Made by a program: the position numbers and the translations under genes. From positions 8,542 through 72,541 of IMG/VR virus record IMGVR_UViG_3300023174_004481: DNA of 64,000 nucleotides; one strand, written 5' to 3'. The stretch comes from a virus. Below the pieces are notes generated by a model, which was not told where the DNA came from, did not search any database, and saw nothing but the letters and a program-made list of their open reading frames with translations. Positions 2,053 to 62,653 of the stretch are shown piece by piece (the stretch's first letter is position 1; each line of letters opens with the position of its first letter).

Positions 2053-4603
2053 GGATTTTAATAGTTTATTTGATCAAGTGGATCTACCTCTTTACGGAGT
2101 TAGGCTTCCAGAATTTAAAATTGATAATCAGTATAAACACGATTTAGAAGTAAGTGAAGATGTATCCAATTATGAATTTTTAAGAGCATTATCTTTAAAA
2201 GGATTTAAGAAATTGAATCTTAAGAAAGATTCGGATTTATATAAAAAATATATTGAAAGAGCAAAGCACGAATTAGAAACCCTTAAAGAATTGGAGTTTA
2301 TTGATTATATTATTTTAGTTTGGAGTGTTATTGATTTTTGTAATAAGAATAATATTCCAGTTGGATTAGGCCGAGGTTCAGCAGCGGGTTCTCTTATATT
2401 ATATCTAATTGGGGTTACTCAAATTGATCCAGTTAAATATGACCTTTATTTCGAAAGATTTATATCTAAGATTAGAGCTAAAAAGCAAGTTGTTGATGGA
2501 GTAACCTATTTGGATGGCAGTTTGATGTGTGACGTAGATTTAGATATTTGTTATTATAATAGACATAAAGTTCTCCAATATCTAGAAGAACAATTCAAAG
2601 GTAAGACTAGTAAAATTTTGACATTAAATACATTAAGCGGAAAACTCTTAATTAAAGAGTGCGGAAAAATTGTTGGTGAAAAATCAGAGCAAGAGATGAC
2701 AGAAGTATCGTCTATGATTCCAAAGATTTTCGGACAAGTCAAAGACATCACAACAGCTTTTGATGAAGTGCCTAAATTTAAAGAATGGTGCGAATCTAAT
2801 AAAGATATTTATGGCGTAGCCCTTAAACTAAGAAACTTAATTAAAAATAAAGGAGTTCATCCATCTGGAGTTTTACTATCTTATAATGATTTAGAAAAAT
2901 CTTGTCCCACTGAATTATCTGGAGATAAAGAAGCGGTATCGAGTTTTGATATGAGTTGGGTTTCATTATTTAATATTAAACTTGATATTCTAGGTTTAAG
3001 AAGCGTTTCTGTAGTAGATGACGTTTGTAAGAGTATTGGTAAAAAAATAACTGATATTGATTTAAATGATGAATCTATATATAGGAACTTACAAGACTTA
3101 AGAAATCCTCATGGGTTATTTCAAATTGAAGCAGAAACTAATTTTAAAGTTTGTCAAAAAGTTAAGCCTAAAAATCTAGAAGAATTAAGCGGAGTTTTAG
3201 CTTTAGCTAGACCTGGAGCTTTGCAATTTGCTGATAAATATGCTGCTCATACTAATTTTCAACAATCAGAAAGTATCCATCCATTCTTCGATGACATATT
3301 AAAAGATACTGGTGGAGTAGCTTTATACCAAGAGCAATTAATGAAGATGGCTCATAAAATTGGCTTCACTCTAGATGAAGCAGAAATTTTGAGAAGAATT
3401 GTAGGTAAAAAGAAAACCGAAGAAATCAAAGCTTGGAAAAAGAAGATTGAAGATAAAATTAAAGAAAATAAACTTCCAAAAGAAGTAGGAGAAATCTTAT
3501 GGAAAATCTTAGAGGATTCAGCAAACTATTCATTTAATAAATCACATTCAATCGCCTATGCAGCTTTAGCCGCGATTACTATTTATTTGAAGTTCAATTA
3601 TCCTCAACAATTCTTTTTGTCTTTATTAAAGATGACTAGAAATGAACCAGATCCAATTGGTGAAATATCTAAAATTCAAAAAGAAATGGGTCATTTCGAT
3701 ATTAAATTATTAAAGCCACATATTATTAAATCTCAGATGGATTTCTCTATTGAAGGTTCAGATATTAGATTTGGGCTATTATCAATTAAAGGTATTTCAG
3801 ATAAATCAATTGAAAAGTTAAACGGATTTAGAAACAAGTATTCTAATAAGTTCGAAATTTTTCAAGCAGCAGAAGAAGCAGATCTTAATATCGGAGTATT
3901 ATGTTCGTTGATTCAAGCTGGAGCTTTAACTGGATTTAAACAATCTAGAAGCAAAATAGTATTAGAGGCTCAACTTTGGAATATATTAACAGCAAAAGAA
4001 AAGAAATACGCAATTTCATTCGCTGAACAATTTGATTATGATCTTATTAAAATTATTAAGCATTTAAATACATTTACTGATGAAAAGAATAAAGTCATAA
4101 TCAAGAGTTCTAGATTAGATACTATTAAATCTAAATATGAACCTTATCTTAAAATATATAATCAAAATAGCAAGAGCGAAAGTTTTGCTAATTGGTATTA
4201 TGAAAAAAGACTCTTGGGCTATACTTACGAAAGAACATTGAAAGATATCTTTAATGAAAAAAGAGAAGATCTATTGTTTATTGATGAAATTATGGATTTG
4301 CCAGTAAATCAAAAAGTAGCACTAGTTGGAGAGGTTACAGATGTATATTCTGGAACATCAAAAAATGAAAAGAAGACTAAATATCTAAGACTTAAAATAT
4401 CAGACGAATCTGGCGATATTACTGTATTATTATTTAATGATAAGATAGAAAATTGTAAAACACTTAATGGGAATAAGAATCCAGAAGAAAAGAATATTGT
4501 TATAGTTAAAGGTATTAAAAAAGAAGATTGTATATTTGCGGATTTGGTAGCTGTTCAAGATCATCAAATATATATGAAATTGAGTGAAATTAAAAAGATT
4601 TGA
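2042..4603 (+). CDS. dnaE: DNA polymerase III alpha catalytic core (family C) lacking the PHP domain
   Basis: GRGSAAGS, FERFI, catalytic DVDLD, HPSGV, KLDILGL, ALARPG, YQEQLM, YSFNKSHS, IRFGLLSIKGI (HhH), C-terminal OB fold. Confidence 0.95.
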   Translation: MTNKDFNSLFDQVDLPLYGVRLPEFKIDNQYKHDLEVSEDVSNYEFLRALSLKGFKKLNLKKDSDLYKKYIERAKHELETLKELEFIDYIILVWSVIDFCNKNNIPVGLGRGSAAGSLILYLIGVTQIDPVKYDLYFERFISKIRAKKQVVDGVTYLDGSLMCDVDLDICYYNRHKVLQYLEEQFKGKTSKILTLNTLSGKLLIKECGKIVGEKSEQEMTEVSSMIPKIFGQVKDITTAFDEVPKFKEWCESNKDIYGVALKLRNLIKNKGVHPSGVLLSYNDLEKSCPTELSGDKEAVSSFDMSWVSLFNIKLDILGLRSVSVVDDVCKSIGKKITDIDLNDESIYRNLQDLRNPHGLFQIEAETNFKVCQKVKPKNLEELSGVLALARPGALQFADKYAAHTNFQQSESIHPFFDDILKDTGGVALYQEQLMKMAHKIGFTLDEAEILRRIVGKKKTEEIKAWKKKIEDKIKENKLPKEVGEILWKILEDSANYSFNKSHSIAYAALAAITIYLKFNYPQQFFLSLLKMTRNEPDPIGEISKIQKEMGHFDIKLLKPHIIKSQMDFSIEGSDIRFGLLSIKGISDKSIEKLNGFRNKYSNKFEIFQAAEEADLNIGVLCSLIQAGALTGFKQSRSKIVLEAQLWNILTAKEKKYAISFAEQFDYDLIKIIKHLNTFTDEKNKVIIKSSRLDTIKSKYEPYLKIYNQNSKSESFANWYYEKRLLGYTYERTLKDIFNEKREDLLFIDEIMDLPVNQKVALVGEVTDVYSGTSKNEKKTKYLRLKISDESGDITVLLFNDKIENCKTLNGNKNPEEKNIVIVKGIKKEDCIFADLVAVQDHQIYMKLSEIKKI

Positions 4604-5183: not shown

Positions 5184-7105
5184 TGTCTAGAAAAAAGAAA
5201 TTTTTATATCATTCTGATTTTGCTCTAGCCAAAACTGGATTTGGTAGAGTATCAAAAGCTTTATTAACTTATTTATATAAAACTGGTAAGTATGATATTG
5301 TTCATTATTGCTGTGGTATGCAGCAAGGAAATCCAGATCTATTAAAGACTCCTTGGAAATCTATAGGATCGCTACCAAATTCTCAACAAGAATTGGAACA
5401 ATTAAATAGAGATCCAAATCAAGGCAGAATGGCGAGTTATGGAGCTTATCTAATTGATAAAGTTATAGAAGAAGAAAAGCCAGATGCTTATGTTGCTGCC
5501 CAAGATATTTGGGGAGTTGATTATAGTATACCAAAACCTTGGTTTAATAAAATTAAATCTTCTATTTGGACTACTTTAGATTCTTTACCCATACTTCCAA
5601 GTGCGGTAAGTTGTGCTCCTAAATTAAAAAATTATTGGATTTGGAGTGATTTTGCCACGAAAGCTTTACATGATTTAAATCATAAACAAGTAGAAACAGT
5701 TCACGGCCCTATAGATGTTCATAATTTTCATAGACTATCAAACGAACAAAGAGCAAATTTAAGAAATAAATTCAACATTCCTCTTAATGCTTTTATCATT
5801 GGATTTGTATTTAGAAATCAATTAAGAAAAAGCGTTCCTAATCTTTTGGAGGGATACGCTCTTTGGAAAGCTAGAAATCCAGAAGTCAAAAATACTTTTC
5901 TTTTATTGCACACTCATTGGTCTGAAGGATGGAATATATACAAATTGGCAGACGAATATAATGTGCCTAAAAATGAAATATTAACTACTTATGTATGTAG
6001 GAATTGTGGAAATTATGAAATTAAAAATTTCGTTGGACAAAATATAGATTGTAAATTCTGTGGAACTCAAAAATCTCAGATTACAACTAGCGTTGGCTAT
6101 GGAGTAACAGAAGAACAACTTAATGAAGTTTATAACTTGATGGATGTTTATTGTCATCCATTTACTAGCGGTGGACAAGAAATACCCATACAAGAAGCTA
6201 AACTTACAGAATTAATAACATTAGTAACAAATTATTCTTGTGGAGAAGAAATGTGTTATGACGAAGCTAATTCATTTCCCTTAGAATGGGCAGAATATAG
6301 AGAACATGGAACAGAGTTTAGAAAAGCATCAACTTTGCCAAGCTCAATAGCAAAACAACTTCATAAAGCTTGGAAAATGCCACTTAACAAAAGATTAGAA
6401 ATGGGTAAGTTAGCTAGAGAATGGACAGTTGATAACTATTCTTCAGAAATAATTGGTAAAAAATTTGAGGAATTTATAGATTCAGCAGATTTTGCAGATT
6501 ATAACAGTATTTCTATAAGCCCAGAATCTCAAGATCCATTAATTAAAATACCAGAAATTAAAAATGATTCAGAATGGTTAAAATTTTTATATGCTAATAT
6601 TCTTAAAAGACCAGATGTAGACGAGAGTGATGATGGCCATAGATATTGGATGCAGGAAATAGCTAAGGGTATGAAAAGACAAGATATCGAAAACTATTTC
6701 AGACAAGTAGCTTGGCAAGAAAATCAAAAAAATAAACAAATAGATTTCAATGATCTTCTTGATAAAAATGATAAAGGCAAAAGGATTCTATATATTATAC
6801 CAGAAGATGAATCTGACGTATTTATGAGTACTAGTATATTTCCTTCTATTAAAAAAATGTATCCAGATCATAATTTATATGTTGCAACTAAAAATGAATA
6901 TTTTGAAATTTTAGAAGGCAATCCAAACATATATAAAGTAATTCCCTTTGTACCACAAATGGAAAACCAAATATGGTGCGAAGGAAATAAAGATCATGAA
7001 GGATATTTTGAAATTGCATTTTTACCATATATTGGTACACAAAAAATATTAAATTACCTTCATAATGGTAAAGATAAACTTGAATTTGATATAAAAAACT
7101 TTTAA
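5183..7105 (+). CDS. GT-B (GT4-like) glycosyltransferase with a Zn-ribbon insertion and a C-terminal GT9-like N-lobe
   Basis: TGFGRV, FRNQLRK, LNEVYNLMDVYCHPFTSGGQEIPIQEA; CRNC..CKFC insert; C-terminal DVF..IKKMYPD.NLYVATK...ILEGNPNI. Confidence 0.85.
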   Translation: MSRKKKFLYHSDFALAKTGFGRVSKALLTYLYKTGKYDIVHYCCGMQQGNPDLLKTPWKSIGSLPNSQQELEQLNRDPNQGRMASYGAYLIDKVIEEEKPDAYVAAQDIWGVDYSIPKPWFNKIKSSIWTTLDSLPILPSAVSCAPKLKNYWIWSDFATKALHDLNHKQVETVHGPIDVHNFHRLSNEQRANLRNKFNIPLNAFIIGFVFRNQLRKSVPNLLEGYALWKARNPEVKNTFLLLHTHWSEGWNIYKLADEYNVPKNEILTTYVCRNCGNYEIKNFVGQNIDCKFCGTQKSQITTSVGYGVTEEQLNEVYNLMDVYCHPFTSGGQEIPIQEAKLTELITLVTNYSCGEEMCYDEANSFPLEWAEYREHGTEFRKASTLPSSIAKQLHKAWKMPLNKRLEMGKLAREWTVDNYSSEIIGKKFEEFIDSADFADYNSISISPESQDPLIKIPEIKNDSEWLKFLYANILKRPDVDESDDGHRYWMQEIAKGMKRQDIENYFRQVAWQENQKNKQIDFNDLLDKNDKGKRILYIIPEDESDVFMSTSIFPSIKKMYPDHNLYVATKNEYFEILEGNPNIYKVIPFVPQMENQIWCEGNKDHEGYFEIAFLPYIGTQKILNYLHNGKDKLEFDIKNF

Positions 7106-19817: not shown

Positions 19818-20632
19818 TAATAATATTTTGTAAATCTTCTTCTAGTTGTAGTAATTCCATCTACAGCGCTACTTCCTTCTATGGTCGTGCTCTGTGCACC
19901 ACTTATTAGCATCGAATAACTTGATCCAGGGCAACACAATGGCTCAATTGCAAAAGTTATAACTCTCGAATCTCCAGTATAAACTACTCTTCTATACAAA
20001 GCTTCACTCATCTCGAACTCTTCCGATGCACCATTGAATTTTACGGTTCTTGGTATTTGAGTATTTAAAACTTTAACTGGTAGATATTCTGCTTTAAAAC
20101 TATAAGATAAATTAAATAGATTAGTATAATCTTCCGTTTGCCCAAGAAAACTATTTGGAGTGGCATTAATTGCGGCTCTTGATCCATGTAAAAAATTAGA
20201 ATTTAAAGATTGTTGAGTTGTGTACGTTCCAATCTGTCCAGTTGGAGGAAAAAAAGTAAAGAACGATGCTTGTGCATTTACAATTTTATCAGGCTCTACT
20301 GTAAAAGAAAAACTATCTAAATAACATCCAGTGAATCTTAAACCAGCAATATCTATATCTCCACTTGGCGGAACATCTGTAAAATTATTTTTCATATTAT
20401 CTATGAAGCTTTTTACAAGATCATCATTTTGAATATTGTATTGAAAAGAAATATTATGAGTAACTACATCATTAGGTACTTGAGAATAAAATGCTTGTCT
20501 CTTTCCAAGTGATTTAACTTGTGTTATATTATTGGTTGTAGAGAATGTTATATTTGTTGCTGGTATTCCCCCAGTAACTCCATTACATAACAATCTAACT
20601 GGTGTATATTTAAAAGAATAAACGTCACTCAT
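19817..20632 (-). CDS. Tail tube-like / distal tail protein
   Basis: CYLDSFSFTVEP..IVNAQASF, FLHGS, LSYSFKAEY.PV; paralogue of the adjacent gene. Confidence 0.55.
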   Translation of the reverse strand: MSDVYSFKYTPVRLLCNGVTGGIPATNITFSTTNNITQVKSLGKRQAFYSQVPNDVVTHNISFQYNIQNDDLVKSFIDNMKNNFTDVPPSGDIDIAGLRFTGCYLDSFSFTVEPDKIVNAQASFFTFFPPTGQIGTYTTQQSLNSNFLHGSRAAINATPNSFLGQTEDYTNLFNLSYSFKAEYLPVKVLNTQIPRTVKFNGASEEFEMSEALYRRVVYTGDSRVITFAIEPLCCPGSSYSMLISGAQSTTIEGSSAVDGITTTRRRFTKYY

Positions 20633-20774
20633 TAGTTAAAATTACACTTTAAAGTGTTTATTAAGAATATAAAATTAGCCATATTATTCTGTCGTTGCTT
20701 ACGCAATGTCCTGTTATTTTGTAAAGTTTCTCCCGAAAACAGTTAAAATATTCAGTCTGATAGGTTTTTTAAAT

Positions 20775-21035
20775 CAATTTATTAATATTTTCAATTTTAA
20801 ATGAAAATTTACTTATTGTTACCAATAAGATTGGACTATATCTTATTTATATTGCTATAAATTCGGGCGCTCGTGTCTCTTTTATTGTTGCGGTAACTCA
20901 AGAATTAGTCTCTACACCTTCTTATATCTTTATATCCGCGATATAAGCTTGGCTCGGTATTGTCCTAAATATGTCAAAGAACTATTTTTTATTTTTAGGG
21001 TTTCCACCGAATTCACCCGATAGGGCCAATTCATT
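20775..21035 (-). ncRNA. Group I intron-type ribozyme core, free-standing in an intergenic region
   Basis: On the minus strand: P3 UCGGGUG (21020-21014) pairs with CGCCCGA (20869-20863); P AAUUCGGUGGAAAC; Q AAUACCGAGCCAAG; R GAAGGUGUAGAGACU; S AAGAUAUAGUCC (20844-20833); P8 AUUUAUA-GCAA-UAUAAAU; P9 CUUAUUG-GUAA-CAAUAAG; candidate omega-G at 20775. Confidence 0.9.
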
Positions 21036-21040
21036 AGTAT

Positions 21041-21046
21041 TTACAC
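21041..21046 (-). promoter_or_regulatory. GTGTAA late-promoter motif directly upstream of the ribozyme core
   Basis: Same motif as in front of the virion genes, but no ORF follows it. Confidence 0.6.
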
Positions 21047-21074
21047 CAATTATTGGTTATTTATTTTAATAAAT

Positions 21075-24000
21075 TTAACAAAGAGAGGGTAATGATATAA
21101 AATTAGCGGGCCAAGGTGAGGTTGAAAATGGATAACCATTTTTGCTTGGACAATAATAAATATTAGCATTATAAGGCATTGGGAAATAGCCAACGCTAGG
21201 TGCATTTCCAAGGAAGTATACGTTTACAGGCCCAGGTGGTATATGAGCAAAAGCATAATCTTGGATACTTATTATTGTAGATGGAATAGTAATATTAGTT
21301 AATCCTGTACAATTAGTAAATGCATTGGTTGCTATAACTAATAAATTATTACCCAAATTTATACCAGTTAATTCGGAACAATTAACAAATGCGGCTACTC
21401 TAATATATTGAATACCATTTCCCATGTTCGCATATTTTAATTTACCACAATTAGCAAATGCCATATCTTGAATATCTATGAGATTATTTCCAATAGTATT
21501 TACTCCTGTTAATTCAGGACAATCGGCAAATGCAACTGTTTCCAAGTTTATTACGCTATTAGGTATAGTTAAAGATTTTAATTTTTGACAAGAACGAAAT
21601 GCGCCGAGTCCTATATTAGATACTCCATTTCCAAGATTTATATTTTCTAATTCTATACATGACCTAAACGCATACATTCCAATACCAGTGCAAGTATCAG
21701 GTATAGTTAAAGATTTTAATTTTTCACAAGAATCAAATGCACGGGTTTTAATATTATTTAGAGTATTTGAAAGAACAACGCCACTTAAGTTAGAGCAATA
21801 AGCAAATACGTCTTCATTAATTGTAGTTATGCCGTTTCCAATTATAACACCAGTTAATCCTGTGCAATAATAAAAAGCGTTAGACTCAATACTAGTAACA
21901 GTATTTGGAATTGTAATATTTTTAATTTTTACATAAGGATTAGACGCAAAAGCATAATCTTGAATAGTATTCACTTCCCTTCCAATATCAACTCCAGTTA
22001 AATCTTTACCAAAAGTAACACCATAGTCACTAAATGTAATTGTGGAATTCGAATGTGTAGAAACACTTCCATTTGAATAATAAAAAGTAGTGTTGGCAGG
22101 ACCAGGAGTAGTTGTTGTAGTTGTAGTTGTAGTAGTTGGTCCAACTGTAGTTGTAGTGCTAGTTGTTACCCCAGGACAAGAAGCGCTATAGCTATAATAT
22201 ACTCCATAACTACAATCTTCTGTATTTAAAATTTTAACATTAACAGTTAAATTATTTATTCCTGCTAATTTTGCAAATGAGAATGTTCCAGAAGAATTTG
22301 TTGTTCTTGATAATATTTTTACGCTATTATAATACAATTCAAACAATAATTCATATCCATTATCAGAAGAGTATGTAAAAATTATATTTCCAGTAGAAGT
22401 AGTTCCTAAATTTAGTAATCTTCTATGATTACAATAATAATCTACAAAATTAGTATCATCTGAATCAGTATAAGTAATTCCACAAGATCCATTTAATTCT
22501 ATTGGAGCAAGAGTTGTTGTTGTTGTAGTCGTTGTTGTTGTGGTTGTGGTTGTTGTTCTAGAACAATTTATACTATATTCATAATTATATTCATCACAAA
22601 ATCCGTCTTCTGGACCATCAATAGCTACAATAACTTTATCATACGCATCATTTTTAATAAAAGAATATGAACCATTATTATTTGAAATTATTGATGTTCC
22701 ATTATTAGAACTAACATAAGAGGTTCCATCCACAATATCAACTTTAATAAGTAATACGCTATTAGTTACATTTAAATTATAAATATAAAATGTTAAATTA
22801 GAAGTGCTGTACCAATTAAAAGTTAATATTCCATTTTGACTTCCAACATTTACTTCTCTAGCACCATAACATCTTCCAGGTAATGTTTTTCCATAATTCC
22901 ATATTTCATCTGATGTATAATATGTTGTATTACATGTTCCAAAAGTACAATAAGGCGCGAATGGATGTCTTGGAGTCGTTGTTGTAGTTGTGGTAGTTGT
23001 AGTTGTTGTCGTAGGAGGAGGAGTCGTGCTAGTGGTAGTAGTAGTTGTGGTCGTTGTCGTAGTAGTTATAATATAAGTATAAAATTTAGGATGACTTTTT
23101 CCTACAATCATAAAATATGCAACATCGTCTGATGCAATTGCAATCCAATTATCATTTTGTGAAGAAATTGTTACCTCTTGAAATGGTTCATCATTTCTGC
23201 TTACTAATATTTTATTTGTATCAGGTAAAACTAATGCTGGTTTGTTAATGGATATAACTCTAACTATGCCATCTTGCCATGATGTATTTCTATTATAATT
23301 AATAGTTTTTAAATCCGATAAAATATATGGACTAAAAGTTGAGCTGGTTTTCTTTTCCCAAGAATCGCCATAATCACTTATATAGTAAGATTCACTTGCA
23401 GACGTAATATTTAAATTTGTAAATTCATTTATAGTATTGTATATGCCTTTACTAATTTGATAACCATTACTAACAATTGGAGATTCACTAGTTTGAACCC
23501 AATTTATTCCATCTTCTGACCAAGCTGTTCTACCCAAAGAATCTATCACAATAAAACGACTATCTTTCGTAGCCACTCCAACCCAATATCCAACAAAAGG
23601 TAATGATCGTTTTGTCCAATTTATTCCATCTGTAGAAGTGGCGTAATTTACTCCATAAGCAAAACTTTCTCCACTATACGAAACCGCTACCCAAAGATTT
23701 AATGTATTATTATAAGCCGCAGCAGACCAATTTAAAGATGGCATTGAATTAGTAAAAGACCAATCTCTTCCATTTGATGAATACAATGCAAAATTACAAT
23801 TTCCATATAAATTAATATTACTATCTCCACAAAGTATTAAAAATTTTCCATTACCATAACAAATTCTTTTAACTTTACATTGATCTGGTAGAGTTGGTAA
23901 ACTAGCACTAGTCCAATCAATTTTATTTTCTGTGATATAAACTTTATTGTTATTTCCTAAAACTATCCAAGTATCAGTTGTCCCATTTTTTCCAAAAACA

Positions 24001-41105: not shown

Positions 41106-41150
41106 AACTTATACCTTTTGACCGACCTTTTACCTACATATGTTTACACT

Positions 41151-62581: not shown

Positions 62582-62653
62582 ATATTTGTTGTTATTAGCT
62601 TACGCTAAATTGCTGCTTTTTTAGGGCAGACTAACAACCAATATTACACAAAA

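Follow-up and report, generated by a model that had tools for sequence, protein, structure and literature searches.

To our knowledge, nearly all natural group I ribozymes are introns, which have to excise themselves from a host gene. The locus described here raises the question of what such a ribozyme does in a phage when it lies in a 442-nt gap between two genes that are both complete. A first-pass annotation had described it as an orphan group I ribozyme with its own late promoter, and had offered three readings: a ribozyme acting in trans, a circularly permuted intron that makes an RNA circle, or an element that processes the RNA downstream of it. We followed this up in the window (the whole stretch of 64,000 nt that was analysed) and in related sequences, and the coordinates of the features are collected in Table 1.

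Table 1. Features assigned at the ribozyme locus of the window; the arrow in a sequence marks the predicted splice point.
Feature	Coordinates	Strand	Basis
Catalytic core P3-P9.1, ending in the putative omega-G, G20775	20775..21020	-	RF00028, 66 bits; helices mapped on the window and counted on 20 sequences
P3 (7 bp)	21020-21014 with 20869-20863	-	Helix mapping
P7	20910-20906 with 20838-20834	-	Helix mapping
P9 (GUAA loop)	20829-20812	-	Helix mapping
P9.1	20808-20787	-	Helix mapping
Putative internal guide UUGGCC, 3' strand of P1; G21027 would pair with the splice-site U	21024..21029	-	Position of the G fixed; co-varies with the site
Extended form of the guide, AAUUGGCC	21031-21024	-	Window only
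Putative displaced 5' splice site GGCU↓AAUU, 5' strand of P1; predicted cut U20677/A20676	20673..20680	-	Sole GGCT in the 520 nt after the core
Predicted cargo, 98 nt between omega-G and the splice-site U	20677..20774	-	Expected circle, U20677 joined to A20774
GTGTAA gene-start/promoter-like motif before the ribozyme	21041..21046	-	20 nt before P3; kept in relatives
Second GTGTAA (20647-20642) and ATG (20632-20630) of the 271-aa gene	20630..20647	-	Same layout in L002, L120, L118, L150 and L192
Direct repeat copy 1, in the end of the LRR gene, with the weaker splice-site look-alike GCU↓AAUU	21090..21107	-	18 nt, 89% identity, spacing 428
Direct repeat copy 2, which begins at the displaced splice site	20662..20679	-	Repeat search

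Catalytic core and its neighbourhood

The gap is bounded upstream by the gene of a 1199-aa BspA-type LRR protein (24674-21075, minus strand; PF13306, E 3e-73) and downstream by that of a 271-aa protein (20632-19817, minus strand). Both Open Reading Frames (ORFs) are complete, as the first-pass annotation had stated; no ORF of at least 60 aa was found inside the gap, and the tRNA search found no tRNA, which agrees with the earlier reading on that point too. Using Pfam and PHROGs, LRR_5 and lectin domains only were assigned to the neighbour proteins in the window, and the neighbouring genes of the relatives gave no match. Among the other genes of the window are those of a DNA polymerase and of minor tail proteins, indicating a tailed phage; its source is fresh water.

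In a local Rfam search, the group I intron family RF00028 matches 20812-21089 on the minus strand with 66.0 bits (gathering cut-off 50; E 2e-16), and the IMG/VR record from which the window comes, a 72.5-kb phage fragment with an estimated completeness of 47%, gives the same match as a single hit. The scores of the relatives are 68-74 bits. Despite the 66 bits obtained locally, RF00028 was missed when the whole window was run at the Rfam gathering cut-offs; we put this down to the speed filters, which can hide AT-rich group I cores. When 20500-21300 was searched with E up to 10, RF00028 and three chance-level hits were reported and nothing else. The model of the lariat-capping ribozyme GIR1 had no match in that region at this threshold, and group II intron families were absent from the Rfam hits, both in the whole window and locally in 20500-21300. 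With blastn against the phage database, only a 97-nt core match to Clostridium phage introns was obtained. The presence of a group I core at this locus is confirmed.

In order to compare the core among phages, we collected relatives of the element. With the downstream 271-aa protein as query we obtained L002 and L003, which have the same arrangement as the window; two conserved core motifs scanned over IMG/VR and followed by BLAST gave L021, L065, L120, L118, L150, L135 and L158; and a two-motif pattern gave 25 metagenome stretches and one genome stretch. Once duplicates were removed, 28 distinct cores remained, 23 from family members and 5 from outgroups (L205, L208, L211, L212 and L216), which are ordinary-looking or GC-rich and were excluded from all family counts; L224 and L225 joined the family set later. 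L193 and L200 have no downstream sequence and L194 has no 5' part, and the denominators used below are 22 for the 5' region, 21 for the region from omega-G to the splice site and 20 where both ends are needed. Freshwater metagenomes contain 25 distinct versions of the element.

The helices P3, P4, P5, P6/P6a, P7, P7.1, P7.2, P8 (GCAA loop), P9 (GUAA loop) and P9.1 were assigned in the window, whose sequence pairs at all 65 listed positions of 12 helices, G-U wobbles counted. In the alignment A2 (20 sequences, 65 pairs), 94.5% of 1298 cells are standard pairs, compared with 83.1% in shuffled alignments, where none of 500 shuffles reaches the observed value; these sequences are related to each other, and the shuffles overstate their independence. 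When the partners were slid by 1-3 columns, 35-45% of the cells were paired. Changes on both sides are found in 34 of the 65 core pairs, and P7, which holds the guanosine site, is invariant in all 20 sequences. The first-pass annotation had described a core with intact and pairing elements, and had named an Infernal comparison with RF00028 and covariation across related phages as the ways to check it; the former comes out above the cut-off (66.0 against 50) and the latter finds the double changes given above. On this comparison, the group I core is complete and has been maintained by selection.

Subgroup IA, the common type in phages and that of the T4 td and Twort introns, has helices between P7 and P3' among its features. 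With P7.1 and P7.2 at this place, we take the window element to be of the IA type. At the other end of the core, conservation between the window and its closest relative, L002, stops directly after G20775, which supports the omega-G proposed there at first. In all 21 members, a G could be set as omega-G 8-13 nt past P9.1, where close pairs of sequences start to differ, at positions chosen by hand. The three frames that follow G20775 hold 1, 6 and 19 sense codons before a stop, as read from the sequence, in line with the earlier statement that all of them stop within 20 codons.

Some side features of the core also vary among members. The conserved stretch AGTTCTTTGA/AA is located inside L5 in the window (20975-20986, minus strand) and in the P5 loop in most members, while in a subgroup with a short P5 it stands instead between GTGTAA and the guide (leaders of L196, L199, L202, L204, L209, L215 and L198); the element seems to have shifted its position within the RNA. 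In P3, an A-C mismatch is present in L118, L150 and L192 (3 of 20 cells unpaired in A2), and in their close relatives L224 and L225 the 3' strand has U at this position, so that an A-U pair is restored.

The putative guide and its displaced splice site

In an ordinary group I intron of this kind, P1 would be sought before the core together with a 5' exon. Here, the putative internal guide lies 3 nt before P3, at the 5' end of the RNA, and its target site lies 98 nt after omega-G (20775). In the window, AAUUGGCC (21031-21024) can pair with GGCU↓AAUU (20680-20673) through 8 contiguous pairs including a U-G wobble, and GGCT is absent from the 250 nt before the guide. In all 22 relatives, the distance from the guide G to P3 is exactly 7 nt, which leaves no room for P2.

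To search for sites in the relatives, the guide was defined as the four bases at -7 to -4, and its wobble-complement was looked for on both sides of the core. Downstream, 19 of 20 relatives have the cognate 4-mer followed by AA. Upstream, within 250 nt, 4 of 22 relatives have their cognate 4-mer, and AA follows it in none. Five types of guide and site occur (GGCC with GGCU, GCCC with GGGU, GCCU with AGGU, GCCA with UGGU, and GGUC with GACU). Of 100 tests for non-cognate site types, 6 gave a site. When the guide labels were permuted 100,000 times, 19 matches were never reached; the sequences are related, and about four independent guide changes were counted among them.

The pairs of P1 were also counted in A2, the 3' ends of which were aligned at the chosen sites, so that these counts lean to the model and the cognate-site search and permutation serve as the neutral test. 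All 80 cells of the four core pairs hold standard pairs. At the wobble position, 19 members have G-U and one (L202) has G-C. The three flanking pairs are G-C in 12 and C-G in 8 members, C-G in 19 and U-A in 1, and C-G in 17, U-A in 2 and A-U in 1, with 8, 1 and 3 double changes, respectively. Parts in the order guide, core, omega-G, cargo and target U were found throughout, with coordinates for 21 members. From the above, we regard a guide-first P1 architecture as very probable.

Two members have particular sites. L202 is the sole one with C for U at the expected site (GGCC↓AAAC, about 2661-2664, minus strand), and in it a GGCU occurs earlier in the cargo, followed by UUUU. L002 contains two candidate sites (5875-5878 and 5943-5946, plus strand), each after a similar hairpin, and the end of its cargo looks duplicated.

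These results bear on the permuted arrangement that the first-pass annotation had considered. Of its three readings, the permuted intron that makes an RNA circle has the best support, but its layout has to be changed: P1 and P2 had been sought downstream, while the guide is at the 5' end (21029-21024) and only the GGCU↓AAUU strand is downstream. The GNRA hairpin at 20706-20695, its candidate for P1/P2, falls within the predicted circle and is not assignable to either helix.

Laboratory trans-cleaving ribozymes likewise carry their guide at the 5' end, and a guide of 4-8 nt could find many targets. The ribozyme might then bind other phage or host RNAs that contain GGCU, and cleave them or splice itself onto them. 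However, 19 of 20 relatives have their site in cis at a constant place, and site and guide co-vary, which would be unexpected if the targets were elsewhere, and no candidate target was identified. We give such an action in trans very little weight against a guide that pairs in cis.

The site is close to a gene start in many members. In 13 of 21, the ATG of a large late gene, to which Pfam and PHROGs assigned no family, follows it at a distance of 4-13 nt; in the clade of the window, the 271-aa gene has its own GTGTAA after the site instead of this contact between site and ATG. Where the G-rich site abuts the ATG, it could be read as a ribosome-binding site too. We also looked by eye for P10, and the first bases of the cargo pair with the 5' side of the guide in L002, L065, L021 and L196, while the pairing is not convincing in L118, L150, L120, L135 and L209. 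P10 is inconsistent among members and was dropped as evidence.

Probable transcription unit, predicted cargo and proposed reaction

The GTGTAA that had been noticed about 20 nt before P3 is placed at 21046-21041. It precedes the guide in 21 of the 22 relatives with 5' sequence (the remaining one has GTGTAT), and the distance from its end to the guide G is 8 nt in most members. In the window, GTGTAA is rarer than expected (16 copies vs 30.5), and an ATG of an ORF of at least 80 aa follows within 30 nt in 11 of the 16 copies, compared with 4 of 117 for four control hexamers. For ordinary genes, the spacing from GTGTAA to ATG is mostly 6-17 nt. The link to gene starts holds in most of the twelve related loci checked, with L065 and L196 as weak exceptions. 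Scanning 20300-21400 for sigma-70 promoters and terminators produced no useful hit on the strand of the ribozyme. Of the "own late promoter" annotated at first, an own gene-start or promoter-like motif stands, while we infer its role as a promoter, and the label "late", from the position of the motif. If GTGTAA is a promoter, many late mRNAs would be leaderless or nearly so.

In this phage group generally, GTGTAA(T) appears as a gene-start-linked motif 6-30 nt before ATGs (in the window, e.g. 24688, 26999, 28291, 44791, 49771 and 53961). One further copy, GTGTAAA at 41149 (minus strand), comes directly after a strong terminator-like hairpin, has no long ORF starting within 30 nt, and may head another non-coding or short-ORF unit.

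The surroundings of the ribozyme differ among relatives. In L021 and L065, the gene upstream of it is on the opposite strand. A homologue of the 271-aa protein is encoded in 12 loci. The ribozyme is present in 8 of them, and in L220 the upstream sequence is too short for a decision; L221, L222 and L223 are natural empty sites, with the homologue and its GTGTAA, different upstream genes and no ribozyme. A terminator-like hairpin stands 21 nt (L202) and 28 nt (L194) after the site, and then come a fresh GTGTAA and the next gene. Together with the leading GTGTAA, the opposite-strand genes, empty sites and terminators indicate that the ribozyme is probably a separate and optional transcription unit. 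At this locus, we found no interrupted gene whose exons would be joined to restore a product, as a group I intron in the strict sense has. The comparison supports the view that the window element is not an ordinary cis-splicing intron and has no host gene, and with it the central reading of the first-pass annotation, of a non-intron element with its own motif.

A direct repeat (Table 1) brackets a 428-bp unit in which the ribozyme and the cargo follow the tail of the LRR gene. The final residues of the LRR protein are encoded by copy 1. From copy 2, a frame is open for 15 codons, to a TAA that overlaps the ATG of the next gene by one base. It resembles an earlier end of the LRR gene and would fit an insertion of the unit with target duplication. 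The repeat may be the footprint of an insertion or a duplication. In L118, L120, L002 and L150, such flanking repeats were not found, the matches being only the two GTGTAA regions and AT-rich stretches; a gapped look-alike in L118 was seen by eye only and is unconfirmed.

Since copy 1 of the repeat puts GCU↓AAUU 76 nt upstream of the guide, where 7 pairs with AAUUGGC are possible, an ordinary intron could be drawn at the 3' end of the LRR gene, cut at 21105/21104 and joined past G20775, changing the last residues of the protein. An in-frame stop shortly after the 5' splice site is usual in phage introns, which would fit. However, the exact cognate 4-mer is absent upstream in the window, L002 as the closest relative with the LRR gene has no upstream site, the last ~65 nt of the upstream gene contain no GGG in L118 and L150, and L021 and L065 have no upstream gene on the same strand at all. 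Moreover, the spliced product would gain one codon only before a stop, and the homologous upstream genes of L120 and L118 end at matching residues without splicing. Splicing of this kind is, in our estimate, highly improbable.

The repeat also suggests a past rearrangement, and three related phages are without the element, so that a decaying, inactive intron remnant left behind by recombination could be imagined as well. A remnant is hard to reconcile with 34 pairs with compensatory changes, a P7 invariant in 20 of 20 sequences, an Rfam score above the cut-off, and as many as 25 distinct versions in freshwater metagenomes. Decay is scarcely credible as the explanation.

The cargo predicted for the guide-first arrangement is short. 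The predicted circles of the relatives are 86-149 nt, and that of L002 is 179 or 247 nt. None of 21 predicted circles has a stop-free frame, and a coding cargo was rejected. The fold of the window cargo has an MFE of -8.4 kcal/mol (z +0.36), and folds as good as this were reached by 125 of 200 shuffles. The cargos of the window, L120, L118, L150 and L192 have AAYAGGACA followed by a hairpin in common, and in their joint fold 4 of 17 predicted pairs co-vary, with a consensus energy of -0.48. With a fold no better than shuffles and few co-varying pairs, we do not claim a structured cargo for the window. Cargo sequences are poorly conserved between clades. In one clade, the cargo is a conserved rod, in which 11 of 31 pairs co-vary and the ends pair with each other. 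An Rfam search of seven relatives (57 kb, E up to 0.1) found no family that matches any cargo, at a search size at which RF00028 itself was reported in just 2 of the 7.

Among the sequencing runs, 23 were listed and 5 were recorded as RNA, and four RNA runs were compared, as contigs only, at 85% likeness. The contigs all fall within 20767-21019 and come from relatives at 85-99% likeness; their presence in an RNA library is not proof of transcription. They show no joints, none of them bridges omega-G or the splice site by 31 letters, and the cargo and its flanks are uncovered.

As a side observation, GCGTAAGC has 3 copies in the window (0.39 expected), two of them on the minus strand. One of these is located at 20697-20704 in the predicted circle and the other in the leader of a 1926-aa gene (62588-62649), just after its GTGTAA; both are a few bases before AUGGC.

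The reaction that we propose would run as follows. Transcription would start just after GTGTAA (21046-21041). The 5' end of the RNA would then coincide with the guide AAUUGGCC (21031-21024), 3 nt upstream of P3, or lie close to it, and there would be neither P2 nor a 5' exon. The guide would pair with GGCU↓AAUU (20680-20673), 98 nt beyond omega-G, to give P1 with the usual U-G wobble. In the first step, free guanosine or GTP bound in P7 would attack after U20677, so that the downstream RNA is cut off and carries the added G. In the second step, the 3'-OH of U20677 would attack the bond after omega-G (G20775). The products would be a circle of 98 nt (20774-20677, U20677 joined to A20774), the free linear ribozyme and the cut downstream RNA. 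In 13 of 21 relatives, where the cut would fall 4-13 nt before the ATG of the late gene, it would also leave a near-leaderless mRNA. We lean towards this full two-step, circle-making reaction of a guide-first group I ribozyme, though with less assurance than towards P1 itself; we put forward as predictions the promoter, the activity of the ribozyme in vivo, and the circle with whatever function it may have. For the circle of the window, a function is unsupported, its cargo folding no better than shuffles and being poorly conserved across clades.

The same P1 could also serve a leader or processing ribozyme, in which the RNA is cut after U20677, and maybe hydrolysed after omega-G, and the ends stay unjoined, so that RNA ends are set, such as those of an mRNA with a short leader. 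The distance from the site to the ATG in 13 of 21 members is similar to the usual spacing from GTGTAA to ATG, the window cargo is weakly structured, the cargo sequence differs between clades and P10 is inconsistent, all of which would suit processing alone. But the next gene in the clade of the window has its own GTGTAA after the site, and the terminators after the site in L202 and L194 mean that no mRNA would be matured there. A G is kept where conservation ends in 21 of 21 members (at hand-chosen positions), and both this G and the rod-shaped cargo of one clade, with its co-varying pairs and paired ends, count against cutting only. The inconsistency of P10 is not an obstacle to joining, since an engineered analogue needs P1 alone and ligates without P10 (PMC10457212). 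Processing without joining is unlikely in our view, though it has to be taken seriously and is less improbable than the alternatives discussed before.

In a wider sense, the two-step, circle-making ribozyme would belong to a freshwater tailed-phage family of promoter-driven, guide-first group I genes that were domesticated from mobile introns and make small functional circular RNAs; in many members the same reaction would trim the message of a late gene to a near-leaderless form, and the 18-nt repeats around the 428-bp unit of the window may record its movement or origin. We hold the chances for and against this wider picture to be about even.

Comparison with known systems

A normal-order counterpart is provided by the outgroup L216 (Virgibacillus halotolerans), in which a 573-nt insert without ORF splits a tail/tape-measure gene, the downstream part of which matches PF10145 from profile position 22 (E 9e-30). 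Its order is GGCU↓AAAA, then UUGGCC 10 nt later, a GUAA-capped hairpin (P2) and P3. The frame is open up to the splice-site U and again directly after AAUUUG, with the splice points read from the sequence. This normal order indicates that the GGCC of the family is homologous to a real guide, and supports the context assigned to omega-G. The window shares with L216 the core with P7.1 and P7.2, the guide UUGGCC, a splice site of the form GGCU↓AA and an omega-G context of the AAUUUG type. However, L216 has a P1 hairpin before P2 and interrupts and restores a gene, whereas the window has no P2, no 5' exon and no host gene, and its site is downstream.

Permuted intron-exon (PIE) constructs are derived from the T4 td and Anabaena pre-tRNA introns. 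They have splice sites in reversed order and a circularised exon, as is predicted here. In PIE, the intron is split inside a loop and its halves flank the exon, whereas in the window the break is in the P1 loop, with few "intron" nucleotides after the cargo.

The layout is closer in two engineered designs. A Tetrahymena construct with a guide-first layout circularises its cargo, and P1 alone is sufficient in vitro without P10 (2023, PMC10457212); a similar engineered construct was described by Cui et al. (2023, PMC10415121). Such "self-targeting and splicing" constructs share with the window family the guide, core, omega-G, cargo and a target ending in U, and P1 forms between the two ends of the transcript, so that two transesterifications (here predicted) close the cargo. 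They are described there as man-made, with an IC1 eukaryotic ribozyme, a long coding cargo and a T7 promoter, whereas the window family is natural and phage-borne, of the IA type, with a non-coding cargo of 86-149 nt (up to 247 in L002) and a gene-start motif, and is known from sequence alone.

In nature, the giant ND5-717 group I intron of mushroom-coral mitochondria back-splices (Chi et al. 2019, as cited in Roth et al. 2021, PMC8637638). It is likewise a natural group I intron whose exons are out of order and joined by back-splicing (here predicted), but on that account it repairs the protein-coding mRNA of an organelle, whereas the element proposed here is a compact RNA gene that would have its own promoter and a small non-coding cargo. 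Bacterial circularly permuted group II introns stand alone, interrupt no ORF and make RNA circles (Roth et al. 2021, PMC8637638). As presented in that source, they are another class of ribozyme with branching chemistry, and no group II model matches the window. GIR1 is described there as making a 3-nt lariat by branching with a remodelled core (PMC8637638). Neither GIR1 nor the family of the group I ribozyme of Clostridioides difficile matched the window in Rfam. The latter ribozyme, which is controlled by c-di-GMP, is a normal-order intron fused to a riboswitch. Like the window element, both are group I-derived RNAs that lie before a coding region; they shape the 5' end of the mRNA or its ribosome-binding site, as the window family may do for the 5' end.

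In a literature search over the main texts of mostly non-subscription journals, no phage or bacterial group I ribozyme was found that is natural, permuted and free-standing; the nearest natural cases are the back-splicing intron of coral mitochondria and the permuted group II introns. Strong covariation with no host gene to repair points to selection on the products themselves. If the proposed reaction is true, phages use group I chemistry for another purpose, namely circular RNA and/or the 5' ends of mRNAs, and the circular-RNA design of the engineers already exists in nature in a compact form. The question of functional circular RNAs in bacteria and phages would then become testable on a transcript of ~400 nt.
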